Of a DNA stretch of 64,000 bases, positions 476 through 55,234 are shown piece by piece. Each line of letters begins with the position of its first letter. Position 1 is the first letter of the stretch. Position numbers and translations under genes: made by a program. Origin of the DNA: a virus (Duplodnaviria; Caudoviricetes). The DNA lies in the IMG/VR virus record IMGVR_UViG_3300020187_001966. One strand, written 5' to 3'. The notes below the pieces were generated by a model. The model had not been told where the DNA came from. It ran no database searches and saw only the letters and a program-made list of their open reading frames with translations.

Positions 476-1080
476 TTAAAGTCCTTTACATAACTAATGT
501 CAGGATATGTATGACTTCCAGCGCAATCTGCGTTGTTGTCTGATAGTACTTGTAGTCTACTTAATCCAAGTTCAGCAGTTTCTGGTGTCATAAAATAATG
601 CCACCCAGCGAACGTTATATTATCATCTTCATAAGGCACACTCATATCTCTACCATCATGTACTGCCCGTTGGCACCAATCATAAAAGTTTTTATCATCA
701 GTTAGTATCATTCCACCACGTATTGTACTTAATATCTTCTTAAACTGGAAACTTAAACACTGACTGTTACCAGACTGGTAACAATTACGGTAAAGTCTAG
801 CTGCGCTATCCACAACATTAGTATTACCGATATTATAGCACCCACTCCACACTTTGTCAATAAAATTTACGTCTAGATCTAAATGAAGTGCTTGCATTGC
901 TACACTAACATATGTGTTTTTAGGTAGAGATATATAGTTTAGATCTGGGTTTTGCTGTTTATAGTAATACAGACTTAGATAAATTGCGTGTGAACAACAA
1001 TCAGTTGCTGTGGCATACGGCGCACCTGTATACTCTGCAATCTGAGATTCAAACTCATGTACTAAATCAAACGGATTCAT
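472..1080 (-). CDS. DegT/DnrJ/EryC1/StrS-family PLP-dependent sugar aminotransferase, short form
   Basis: Motifs DCCSHAIYLSL, VVDSAARL, LSFQFKKILSTIRGGMILTDD (PLP-lysine region). Only 202 aa. Confidence 0.8.
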   Translation of the reverse strand: MNPFDLVHEFESQIAEYTGAPYATATDCCSHAIYLSLYYYKQQNPDLNYISLPKNTYVSVAMQALHLDLDVNFIDKVWSGCYNIGNTNVVDSAARLYRNCYQSGNSQCLSFQFKKILSTIRGGMILTDDKNFYDWCQRAVHDGRDMSVPYEDDNITFAGWHYFMTPETAELGLSRLQVLSDNNADCAGSHTYPDISYVKDFK

Positions 1081-14412: not shown

Positions 14413-14440
14413 ATTATAATTATTTATGAGGGAATGTCAA
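14413..14440 (-). promoter_or_regulatory. Sigma70-like promoter overlapping a late-promoter-like CATAAATA (14421-14428)
   Basis: TTGACA (14440-14435), 16 nt, TATAAT (14418-14413) on the minus strand, upstream of 14385. Confidence 0.6.
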
Positions 14441-38598: not shown

Positions 38599-38626
38599 TT
38601 GACAAAGGTAGAATATGTGTTATATT
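38599..38626 (+). promoter_or_regulatory. Sigma70-like promoter for gp55
   Basis: TTGACA (38599), 16 nt, TATATT (38621). Confidence 0.55.
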
Positions 38627-52141: not shown

Positions 52142-53302
52142 ATGGCAGACAACCTAATGGAAAATTGGGGCGCTACAAAAGACGCCCTCACAGATGGTTT
52201 ATCTGGAACAAAGAAGCAAGTAATGGAATCAGTACTTGAGAACACAAAACGCTACATCGCAGAATCTGCAACAGCGGGTGCTACTCAAGCAGGTAACATT
52301 GCTACACTAAACAAAGTGATTCTTCCAGTAATCAGACGTGTTATGCCAACTGTTATTGCTAACGAAATCGTTGGTGTACAGCCTATGACAGGCCCAGTTG
52401 GACAAATTCATACTCTACGTGTGAGATATGCAGAAACTTTTGACTCAGCAACAGCTGGTGACGAAGCTCTAAGCCCATTTGCAATCGCAACTGGATACTC
52501 AGGTAATGGAACTACAAACCGTGCAGATGCTACAGCATCGCAAGAAGGTTTACCTGGTAAGAAAATGTCAATTCAAGTGTTAAAACAAACAGTTGAAGCG
52601 AAAACACGTAAACTATCAGCACGTTGGACATTCGAAGCGGCACAAGACGCCAATTCAATGCACGGCCTAGACGTTGAAGCAGAAATCATGCAAGCACTTG
52701 CTCAAGAGATTACTGCTGAGATCGACCAAGAGATCATTACATCTCTTACATCACTAGCTGGTACAGCTACTGACACATACGACCAAAGTGGCGTAAGTGG
52801 TACAGCAACATTTGTAGGTGACGAGCATGCAGCACTAGCAGTTCTAATCAACAAAAATGCTAACACAATTGCAGCACGTACACGTCGTGGCGCAGGTAAC
52901 TGGGCAGTTGTTTCTCCAACAGTACTAACAGTACTACAGAGTGCGACTACATCAGCATTTGCACGTACAACAGAAGGTCCTTTTGAAGCACCTACAAACA
53001 CAAAATTCGTTGGTACACTAAACGGTACTATGAGAATTTATGTAAACCAGTACGCAGCAAACGACAACGTACTAGTAGGATACAAAGGCGCAACAGAGAC
53101 AGACGCAGCAGCGTTCTATTGCCCATACATCCCGCTAATGTCAAGTGGCACAGTGCTTGATCCAGACTCATTCGAGCCAGTGGTATCATTCATGACACGT
53201 TACGGATATGTAGAACTAAGCAACCAAGCATCATCGCTTGGTAACGCAGCAGACTACCTATCAGCAATCGCAGTTACATCAAACAAACTAGCATTTGCTT
53301 AA
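52142..53302 (+). CDS. gp23: Major capsid protein gp23
   Basis: VILPVIRRVMPTVIANEIVGVQPMTGP, EAKTRKLSARWTFEAAQD, FYCPYIPL, FMTRYG. Confidence 0.97.
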   Translation: MADNLMENWGATKDALTDGLSGTKKQVMESVLENTKRYIAESATAGATQAGNIATLNKVILPVIRRVMPTVIANEIVGVQPMTGPVGQIHTLRVRYAETFDSATAGDEALSPFAIATGYSGNGTTNRADATASQEGLPGKKMSIQVLKQTVEAKTRKLSARWTFEAAQDANSMHGLDVEAEIMQALAQEITAEIDQEIITSLTSLAGTATDTYDQSGVSGTATFVGDEHAALAVLINKNANTIAARTRRGAGNWAVVSPTVLTVLQSATTSAFARTTEGPFEAPTNTKFVGTLNGTMRIYVNQYAANDNVLVGYKGATETDAAAFYCPYIPLMSSGTVLDPDSFEPVVSFMTRYGYVELSNQASSLGNAADYLSAIAVTSNKLAFA

Positions 53303-53328
53303 TAGCAATTTTAGTTGATAAAATAAAG

Positions 53329-53354
53329 ATAGGCGCTACGGCGCCTATTTTTTT
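53329..53354 (+). terminator. Intrinsic terminator after gp23
   Basis: ATAGGCGC-TACG-GCGCCTAT (cUACGg tetraloop) plus a T-tract. Confidence 0.9.
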
Positions 53355-53375
53355 GACTTTTTTTTTAAAAAAGTG

Positions 53376-53404
53376 TTGACATTGGTGTCTACATATGCTA
53401 TATT
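53376..53404 (+). promoter_or_regulatory. Sigma70-like promoter
   Basis: TTGACA, 17 nt, TATATT; no substantial ORF follows. Confidence 0.75.
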
Positions 53405-53410
53405 ATATAC

Positions 53411-53615
53411 ATAGCTTGGGAGATATCCCAGAGTTAGATAGTGCAAGGAATGGCGGTCCGTAGAGGTCGTAACTTGGTTCATAGCTGTAGTGGCAATGCA
53501 AGAGCGTAGAGATACGAAGTTGTATTTTTAGACATAACTGTTTAATATGAAGTTCCCGGATTTGAGCGTGGCTCTACACAAGGGTTGTTGGTATTCACAG
53601 AGTCCAACCTATCAC
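53411..53615 (+). ncRNA. Candidate ~200-nt structured ncRNA of unknown family
   Basis: Own promoter; about 44% GC by hand count; nested helices GATAG/CTATC, GGA/TCC, TAGAG/CTCTA, AAC..TTCATA/TATGAAGTT; GNRA hairpin CGTA-GAGA-TACG. Confidence 0.6.
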
Positions 53616-53619
53616 TTTA

Positions 53620-53627
53620 TATAAATA
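53620..53627 (+). promoter_or_regulatory. T4-type late promoter
   Basis: Exact TATAAATA. Confidence 0.7.
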
Positions 53628-53654
53628 ATAACGTAAGAAATAAGGAATTTTAAC

Positions 53655-53714
53655 ATGTCAAAAACTACAGTACATATTACTTACTGGCCACCATGCGAAT
53701 GGGGAATGTTTTGA
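53655..53714 (+). CDS. 19-aa micro-ORF (MSKTTVHITYWPPCEWGMF), possible leader peptide
   Basis: TAAGGA RBS at proper spacing, late promoter upstream, terminator downstream. Confidence 0.5.
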   Translation: MSKTTVHITYWPPCEWGMF

Positions 53715-53741
53715 TGTGACTTTTTAAAAGTTATTTTATAC

Positions 53742-53776
53742 AAGCCCTTAGCATTAATTTGTTGGGGGCTTTTTTT
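53742..53776 (+). terminator. Intrinsic terminator
   Basis: AAGCCCTTAGCA-loop-TGTTGGGGGCTT followed by a T-tract. Confidence 0.8.
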
Positions 53777-53779
53777 ATG

Positions 53780-53851
53780 AACACACTATGTCCTACTGCA
53801 ATAGGAAGCGTTGCAGCGCATAGATCCCGAAAGGGTCGAAGTTAGTGTGTT
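53780..53851 (+). ncRNA. Compact structured RNA with complementary (kissing) loops
   Basis: 9-bp closing stem AACACACTA/TAGTGTGTT; TCCTA-CTGCAA-TAGGA; GCG-TTGCAG-CGC; GATCCC-GAAA-GGGTC. Confidence 0.65.
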
Positions 53852-53862
53852 TTTAAAAAAAT

Positions 53863-53936
53863 GAGGGTGTAGTGAAATGGTATCACGCTGGTCTCCAAAA
53901 CCAGAAGCAGGAGTTCGATTCTCCTCACCTTTGCCA
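53863..53936 (+). tRNA. trnW: tRNA-Trp (CCA)
   Basis: Full cloverleaf; anticodon CCA at 53895-97; GTTCGATT T-loop; encoded 3' CCA. Confidence 0.95.
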
Positions 53937-53942
53937 AATAAT

Positions 53943-54019
53943 TCTACCTTAGCTCAGTAGGTTAGAGCGCCTGATTGTGGATCAGGAGGTCTCTGGTTCG
54001 ATTCCAGAAGGTAGGACCA
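53943..54019 (+). tRNA. trnH: tRNA-His (GTG), lacking G-1 and carrying A73
   Basis: Cloverleaf with CCTGA-TTGTGGA-TCAGG anticodon arm, TTCGATT T-loop, encoded CCA. Confidence 0.95.
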
Positions 54020-54035
54020 ATTTTATCTTTACTGC

Positions 54036-54064: not shown

Positions 54065-55234
54065 ATGAGCACCACAAAATATAAACAGGATTTAGACGTT
54101 ACTGGAAACATAACCTTATCCGGAAATGTAACAGCAGACGGAAACGTAATATTAGGTGATGCTGATACAGATAGCATTACACTAAATGCTGACATAACAA
54201 GTAACATAGTACCAGATGTCACTAACACATATGATTTAGGTGCTACTGGTAAAAACTGGAAAGACTTGTTTATAGCTAATGATATTACTGTTGGTAACAA
54301 TATCGTTGCTCTACAAGTAGCTACTCTTAGTGATGTAACAGTCGGAGCTGATTTAAGTGTTGCAGGTGATGCTGACATTACTGGAAACTTAGATGTTACA
54401 GGTAATATCACAAGTGCCGCATCAGGAACACCAACAGTAACTAGTTCAACAGATATTAATTTACAAGCAGGCACAGGTGCCGCTGATCGTGTTGAAGTTA
54501 CACAATCTCCTTTCAAAGTTGCTAGTTTTACTACAGCACAACGTGATGCGAAAACTAGTGAAAATGGCGACGTGATTTACAATACTACAACTGCTCAACT
54601 AGAATGTTATCAGGACAGTAGCTGGTCAGCTTTGAGAATAAATGAATCAGAGATTGCACTTGGTAAAGACGCAGGTAAAACAAGTCAAGGCGCAGGCTCA
54701 GTAGCAGTTGGGTATGAAGCAGGCAATACAGGTCAAGGCGCAAATGCAATAGCAATTGGTGAAAAAGCAGGTTATGCAAACCAAGCCGCAAACTCGATTG
54801 TAATAAACGCAACTGGTACAGAAGTATACAGCTTTGGAAGTGGTCTAGTAATTACACCAATTAGAAGTGCAAGTGGTACAACTACGTTGATGTATGATGC
54901 TTCGACAGGAGAAATTACACATACAGCAACACCAGCACAACAAACTATGATAGGAAGTGTGCAACAAATTAGTGGCCCTGGAGCAATTGACGTAACATCA
55001 TACATTACTGAAATTACAACAACTGGCGCAGATGCCTACACACTTGCAGATGGTGTAGCAGGACAAATAAAAATAATTAGTATGATAGTAGATGGCGGTG
55101 ACGCAACAATTACTCCGACTACATTTGCTACTGGAACGACAATTACAATGGCTGATGTAAACGATAACATAACATTATTATATGGTGCCAATGGTTGGGT
55201 GAATACCGCAAACCAAGGCTCAATTATAGCATAA
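54065..55234 (+). CDS. Putative fibre/virion appendage protein
   Basis: V.G.L.V.G fibre-shaft repeats; LGDADTD...TYDLG..GKNW module; adhesin-like AIGxxAG repeats. Confidence 0.7.
   Translation: MSTTKYKQDLDVTGNITLSGNVTADGNVILGDADTDSITLNADITSNIVPDVTNTYDLGATGKNWKDLFIANDITVGNNIVALQVATLSDVTVGADLSVAGDADITGNLDVTGNITSAASGTPTVTSSTDINLQAGTGAADRVEVTQSPFKVASFTTAQRDAKTSENGDVIYNTTTAQLECYQDSSWSALRINESEIALGKDAGKTSQGAGSVAVGYEAGNTGQGANAIAIGEKAGYANQAANSIVINATGTEVYSFGSGLVITPIRSASGTTTLMYDASTGEITHTATPAQQTMIGSVQQISGPGAIDVTSYITEITTTGADAYTLADGVAGQIKIISMIVDGGDATITPTTFATGTTITMADVNDNITLLYGANGWVNTANQGSIIA

Follow-up and report, generated by a model that had tools for sequence, protein, structure and literature searches.

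The tract that follows the major capsid gene in the DNA analysed here (64,000 nucleotides of an uncultured marine giant phage, IMG/VR record IMGVR_UViG_3300020187_001966, called the window below) contains, with near certainty, a divergent member of the manA RNA family (Rfam RF01745). We propose that this element is a phage-encoded RNA with its own gene that would act in trans and self-associate, a reading drawn from sequence comparison to which we assign a probability of about 0.6. In marine giant phages manA appears usually to be a self-contained early gene, which argues against the riboswitch label that the family has long carried. Added here are counts of promoter and terminator anatomy, the covariation of a three-loop network in natural sequences, and the presence of consensus sigma70 promoters in front of canonical cyanophage copies as well.

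Assignment of the RNA to the manA family

The RNA and the two canonical copies used for comparison are as follows.

53416-53618, + strand: manA-family RNA, 203 nt (RF01745, model positions 1-192)
L223:1029-1215, equal to P-SSM4 164829-165014: canonical manA of P-SSM4
L224:1038-1235: canonical manA of P-SSM2

The Rfam model RF01745 aligned with 53416-53618 over its full length with a score of 40.6 bits (E 5.3e-9 in the local search and 5.2e-7 for the whole window). As this score is under the Rfam gathering threshold of 55.2 bits, a scan of the window at gathering thresholds returned two tRNAs and nothing else, and it was in a permissive scan of positions 53250 to 53900 (E up to 10) that manA came out as the sole significant addition among 34 matches. 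The Rfam search suggested in the original prediction thus led to a family, manA, but gave no match to the 6S, SRP and RNase P RNAs that had been named as candidates. ARAGORN found tRNA-Trp and tRNA-His downstream and nothing else, which rules out a tRNA or tmRNA identity for 53416-53618 itself.

Relatives were sampled from 80 IMG/VR contigs encoding relatives of the window's capsid protein, about 60 of which extend for 400 nt or more past the capsid gene. RF01745 matched 15 of the 80 contigs, and five of the matches exceeded the threshold (56.4-78.6 bits). A covariance model built from the window copy and these 15 relatives (R1) found 21 copies in the 80 capsid loci, all on the capsid strand and 110-1020 nt past the capsid stop codon. 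The core word ATAGTGCAAGGAA...AACTTG gave at least 120 further matches in IMG/VR, 57 of which were confirmed by R1, and at least 120 in metagenomes; the comparative set used below comprises 78 related copies. A second model (R2) was built from the five above-threshold relatives alone, leaving the window copy out. With filters off, R2 found 53420-53618 at 36.4 bits (E 3.7e-10), the runner-up scoring 9.3 bits. Conversely, R1 recovered the canonical manA RNAs at their Rfam coordinates (48.2 bits for P-SSM4 and 34.2 bits for P-SSM2, compare with 184 and 182 bits for the same RNAs scored with RF01745). Since both of these leave-out tests were positive, the window RNA can be placed in a divergent manA branch that straddles the Rfam cut-off; indeed, the subfamily sharing the core ATAGUGCAAGGAA...AACUUG spans 30-79 bits, on both sides of the 55.2-bit threshold. 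The idea that the tract might represent a new family was therefore abandoned, the manA motif having been described in 2010 (Weinberg et al. 2010, PMC2864571). Altogether, a large manA branch is missed at default Rfam thresholds, and this poorly covered branch gains a member from a giant phage.

The window RNA shares with RF01745 the order of its helices (P1, the closing helix, P3, a four-way junction with three hairpins, P8 and P9), the AGUG that follows the closing helix, the GNRA loop on P6, the GGUA in P9 and an L5 loop of the GURGUG type facing ACY in L7. Further common points are the marine phage habitat and the consensus sigma70 promoter immediately in front of the RNA, the latter seen in P-SSM4 and P-SSM2. 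It differs from the canonical RNAs by its closing helix, GAUAG/CUAUC instead of GGGAG/CUCCC, and by its carrier, a giant phage whose capsid gene is of the PA5oct/Rak2 type, and not a cyanophage. A DNA similarity search with the RNA region gave no match among deposited phages, and RF01745 had no match in Vibrio phage 2.275.O or PA5oct with a first-look filter that also misses the true copies L024, L106 and L154. When metagenomes were searched for short transcript-like contigs, long DNA contigs alone were returned. We also noted that an annotated hypothetical protein of P-SSM4, PSSM4_169.1, overlaps the manA RNA and probably does not represent a genuine gene.

Fold and covariation

The helices of the window copy are listed below.

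53416-53431: hairpin P1
53437-53441 with 53609-53613: closing helix P2, GATAG/CTATC
53444-53476: hairpin P3/P3b
53478-53483 with 53546-53551: P4, four-way junction, TTCATA/TATGAA, carrying P5, P6 and P7
P5, on the four-way junction: loop UGUAGUG
53505-53516: P6/P6b, CGTA-GAGA-TACG, with a GAGA tetraloop (GNRA) at 53509-53512
P7, on the four-way junction: loop AUAACU
53555-53584: P8
53587-53608: P9

Every helix of the manA consensus forms in the window copy, which gives a fold of nine helices with 6 branch points. In a model-based alignment of 22 copies, 88.6% of the cells at paired positions could pair, compared with 66.2% after shuffling and 33-45% when the alignment was slid, and compensatory changes on both sides were found in 41 of the 54 pairs. 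RNAalifold run on a plain MAFFT alignment independently recovered 34 pairs, 25 of them compensatory. The weak element is P8b, with 62.5% of cells paired. As the stability of the single-sequence fold is not unusual (z = -1.07) and is uninformative in this respect, thermodynamic stability was dropped as evidence of structure, and the evidence is comparative: covariation among the aligned copies shows that the nine-helix fold is fixed.

These results bear on several points of the original prediction. The pairings that had been drawn by hand are real within 1 nt, GATAG/CTATC, TTCATA/TATGAA and CGTA-GAGA-TACG corresponding to P2, P4 and P6b; TAGAG (53461-53465) with CTCTA (53572-53576) is real too and represents the L3-L8 loop-loop contact described below. 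Covariation among the relatives downstream of the capsid gene, which had been proposed as a check, turned out to be strong. By contrast, the description of the RNA as a long hairpin or rod did not hold, the fold being multi-branched. The tract had been said to lack a credible ORF, and about 203 nt (53416-53618) are indeed ORF-free in this sense; a 19-codon ORF at 53450, inside a 22-codon ORF (53441-53509), does not account for the conservation, because its ATG is lost and the frame is stopped in most relatives. The coding explanation was rejected on these grounds.

Promoter and genome setting

The features that surround the RNA are the following.

52142-53302, + strand: major capsid gene
53325-53352, + strand: intrinsic terminator of the capsid gene, a 12-pair stem followed by a T run
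53376-53404, + strand: sigma70-type promoter, TTGACA (53376-53381)-17-TATATT (53399-53404), 11/12 matches, with a TGn extended -10
53620-53627, + strand: TATAAATA, T4-type late-promoter motif abutting the 3' end of the RNA
53655-53714, + strand: 19-codon sORF MSKTTVHITYWPPCEWGMF with a Shine-Dalgarno sequence
53742-53771, + strand: first intrinsic terminator past the manA promoter
53780-53851: 72-nt stem-closed RNA, AACACAC...GTGTGTT, between the terminator and tRNA-Trp

The capsid-gene terminator forms the upstream edge of an RNA island, and the near-consensus sigma70 promoter that had been noticed after it was confirmed. It is located about 11 nt 5' of the RNA start at 53416, with a predicted transcription start at about 53410-53412, so that some 5 nt would precede helix P1. 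Matches to TTGACA-N16-18-TATAWT number 4 across the window (0.31 expected); the other near-consensus sigma70 promoters are at 832-860 (-), 14413-14440 (-) and 38599-38626 (+). Of the 70 non-duplicate copies with enough upstream sequence, 64 have an equivalent promoter, which stops 9-17 nt short of the RNA, takes the form TTGACx-16/17-TAtAaT and mostly includes the TG. Both canonical RNAs, those of P-SSM4 and P-SSM2, lie directly behind a perfect TTGACA-16/17-TATAAT that overlaps the end of the upstream gene. Given that the canonical cyanophage copies are also consensus-promoted, independent promotion looks like a trait of the manA family, as judged from promoter motifs. Together, promoter and covariation bear out the view of this RNA as an independently promoted, non-coding and structured molecule of about 200 nt.

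Complementary loops and possible RNA-only assembly

An un-reviewed preprint by Ren et al. (July 2026; bioRxiv 10.64898/2026.07.01.735769), to whose text our loop numbering was matched, reports by cryo-EM that manA RNAs assemble without protein into octamers, decamers and an icosahedral-like cage in which 60 subunits are arranged as pentamers. The pentamer contacts are L5-L7' and L8-L9' kissing loops in one manA variant, and L5-L7', L3-L8' and an L6 GNRA-receptor contact in another; the oligomers are reported in vitro only, at 10 mM Mg and high RNA concentration (bioRxiv 10.64898/2026.07.01.735769). The corresponding loop segments of the window RNA, besides L5, L6 and L7, are as follows.

53460-53465, + strand: L3 loop GUAGAG, complementary to CUCUAC in L8
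53572-53577, + strand: CUCUAC in L8, partner of L3
53568-53571, + strand: GUGG in L8, directly 5' of CUCUAC, weak partner of UCAC in L9

In the relatives, the 3-bp L5-L7 contact pairs in 93.7% of the cells. One of its positions is occupied by GC (16), AU (13), UA (8) or GU (5), and misaligned variants, UGC:GCA and UAU:AUA, also fit. A crude longest-complement test of L5-L7 gave p = 0.046 with Watson-Crick pairs only and 0.40 when G-U was allowed, the position-specific count being clearer. For L3-L8 the Watson-Crick complementarity was 4.5 nt within the same molecule and 3.4-3.65 nt across molecules (permutation p <= 5e-5, a test that ignores relatedness); it was not robust to the inclusion of G-U pairs (p = 0.07), and at least 10 different complementary word pairs were found among the relatives. 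Similarly, L9-L8 complementarity was 4.57 nt within and 3.92 nt across molecules (permutation p < 5e-5, again ignoring relatedness), and the L9-complementary word of the relatives lies on L8 directly 5' of the L3-complementary word. Among the 72 unique copies that have an L6 loop, this loop is a GNRA in 51. In the window the contacts are AGU/ACU for L5-L7, GUAGAG/CUCUAC for L3-L8 and GAGA for L6, while the L9-L8 contact UCAC/GUGG is weak (3 Watson-Crick pairs and 1 G-U).

The relatives analysed here resemble the assemblies of Ren et al. in the complementarity of L5-L7, L3-L8 and L8-L9 and in the GNRA of L6; those assemblies were seen by cryo-EM in other family members, and covariation cannot separate intramolecular pseudoknots from intermolecular kissing loops. 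Since the loops used as contacts in vitro stay complementary, being kept so in natural sequences by compensatory change, the RNA most likely self-associates into a closed multimer. Multimerisation in vivo is plausible, and a structural role of the RNA, of the kind implied by the packaging-associated RNA named as an alternative in the original prediction, is possible in view of the capsid-like cages that the family is reported to form in vitro.

Stand-alone gene or leader

We then compared what lies downstream of the RNA in 63 copies. In 36 of them an intrinsic terminator comes next, its T run beginning 25-44 nt past the fold; the terminators, where present, are constitutive hairpins. The closest RNA relative of the window copy (L154, 94% identical) has such a terminator. 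Fourteen copies, including that of the window, have a late-promoter motif abutting the RNA and a gene next, two (L053 and L119) have a tRNA-Gly that begins 5 nt after the 3' end of manA (L053:4499-4573), and the other 11 show different arrangements. For L053 and L119 this spacing implies that manA and tRNA-Gly would be co-transcribed and the RNA released by tRNA-processing enzymes. With a terminator right after the RNA in 36 of 63, most copies form transcription units that are complete in themselves and have no target in cis, and, unlike in the Rfam placement of manA, they end at their own terminator outside any 5' UTR. A second context was found in T4-like contigs, with the order gp59, lysozyme, small ORF, manA, TATAAATA and gp32 (identified with Pfam; L106:298-2816, and also in L105, L107, L121, L129, L130, L139, L151, L171, L173, L175 and L176). 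The late promoter between the RNA and gp32 means that late messages are made without the RNA. From these sequence arrangements we consider it likely that the manA RNA has a stand-alone function.

Weinberg et al. (2010, PMC2864571) had proposed from 5'-UTR positions that the motif acts in cis, and Rfam labels manA 'Cis-reg' accordingly. As a leader or riboswitch, the fold would sense a metabolite or factor and control what follows on the same early transcript, which is the sORF and the terminator ahead of the tRNAs in the window, and gp32, purL and other genes elsewhere. The complex, junction-rich fold with its invariant unpaired bases is in line with this, and so are the 14 copies with a gene directly next and P-SSM2, where manA ends about 16 nt before the purL start codon. 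The window copy itself also fits a leader: there is no terminator between the fold and the sORF at 53655-53714, and as the late-promoter motif and this conserved sORF come directly next, the RNA could be a 5' leader here. The primary transcript of the window copy would probably run through the sORF to the terminator at 53742-53771, about 360 nt in all, unless it is processed. On the other side, the 36 copies cut off by a terminator and the two that precede a tRNA leave no gene to control, and the flanks examined showed no conserved pairing that would form an alternative terminator or an anti-terminator or sequester the Shine-Dalgarno sequence. The late promoter separates the RNA from the following gene, so that late mRNAs lack the RNA, the sORF-terminator module occurs without manA in L272 and L245, and 16 years have passed without a report of a ligand. 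We therefore hold a leader function to be rather unlikely.

Two further readings start from the promoter and from the neighbours of the RNA. The original prediction favoured a decoy of the 6S type, which would mimic open promoter DNA, sequester sigma70 RNA polymerase and so aid the switch to late transcription. The length of about 200 nt and the strong sigma70 promoter are shared with 6S RNA (RF00013 and relatives), and the adjoining late promoters fit circumstantially, but no 6S model matched with E up to 10, and in place of the long rod with a central bubble that binds polymerase the RNA has a nine-helix branched fold closed by a 5-bp helix. Being homologous to another family, manA, the RNA was rejected as a 6S RNA on both sequence and structure, and a decoy role of this kind is hardly tenable. 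The manA promoter could instead mainly drive tRNA-Trp and tRNA-His by read-through of the terminator at 53742, the fold being a by-product or an element for processing or stability. From 53404 to the tRNAs there is no further good sigma70 promoter, and the tRNA-Gly of L053 and L119 directly after the RNA is in keeping with this. The tRNA region of T4 encodes stable small RNAs, species 1 and 2 (rnaC/rnaD), which are processed from a tRNA precursor; by description, they resemble the window RNA as phage-encoded, non-coding, early and stable RNAs that adjoin tRNA genes. Most manA copies studied here differ from them in having their own promoter and terminator. Because most copies also have no tRNA within 300 nt, and because the fold and loop complementarities are conserved far past what a spacer or a processing signal would need, we regard a role restricted to the tRNA operon as improbable.

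In the self-associating, trans-acting RNA that we favour, host RNA polymerase would transcribe manA early in infection, as it does phage tRNAs, and the product would act as a folded particle rather than as a switch for the downstream gene. The L5-L7, L3-L8 and L8-L9 contacts could join the RNAs into decamers or 60-mer cages built on pentamers, and the particle might serve as a scaffold, a sponge or an enclosure. A bolder version, which we put forward tentatively and think doubtful, is that an RNA-only closed particle (decamer or 60-mer) is made early as an effector, an 'RNA capsid', from a mobile promoter-RNA-terminator cassette. If so, this RNA capsid could for example enclose or soak up a host factor, the cassette would move between marine giant phages and T4-like phages, and the geometry of the particle would be dictated by the three-loop network (L3, L9 and their neighbouring sites on L8).

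The RNA island downstream of the capsid gene

The fold had been predicted to end just before a late promoter at 53620, and the motif TATAAATA is found there, at 53620-53627; this motif is not enriched in the window (6 occurrences, 10.75 expected). The sORF that follows is conserved as a peptide in L227, L272, L245 and L304/L249 (for instance MIKTNTIGIIYWPSRKWGMS and MSQTNTIYITNWPPIGGMS), with the same length and a W-P-[PS] near the C-terminus, and a conserved spacer and an intrinsic terminator come after it. Some of these loci have manA in front of the sORF and others do not, so the sORF is a module distinct from manA. The sORF and its terminator resemble a leader-peptide attenuator preceding the tRNAs, and from its arrangement the module looks like one. 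The WPP motif is reminiscent of ribosome-arrest peptides. The 72-nt RNA at 53780-53851 had no Rfam match, and similar elements were observed after the manA or sORF terminator in L110/L162 and L304/L249.

Altogether, manA, the sORF, its terminator, the 72-nt RNA, tRNA-Trp and tRNA-His make up an RNA island of about 680 nt (window 53353-54035), bounded on one side by the capsid-gene terminator and on the other by the late promoter that serves the next structural gene. The closest capsid relatives for which the flanks are available (L002-L005, L007 and L009) do not contain this island; in these loci the capsid terminator leads directly to the late promoter of a tail-fibre-like gene homologous to window 54065-55234. 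The island is thus an accessory insertion. In other loci (L044, L020, L023, L045, L048, L141, L172 and others) the gene past the manA cassette, whose product begins with MGRPL, has the late-promoter motif GATAAATAC. The leader of this gene is the freshwater-2 RNA, a motif not found after the capsid gene of the window, which in L044:4556-4639 scores above threshold (RF02980, 66.1 bits).
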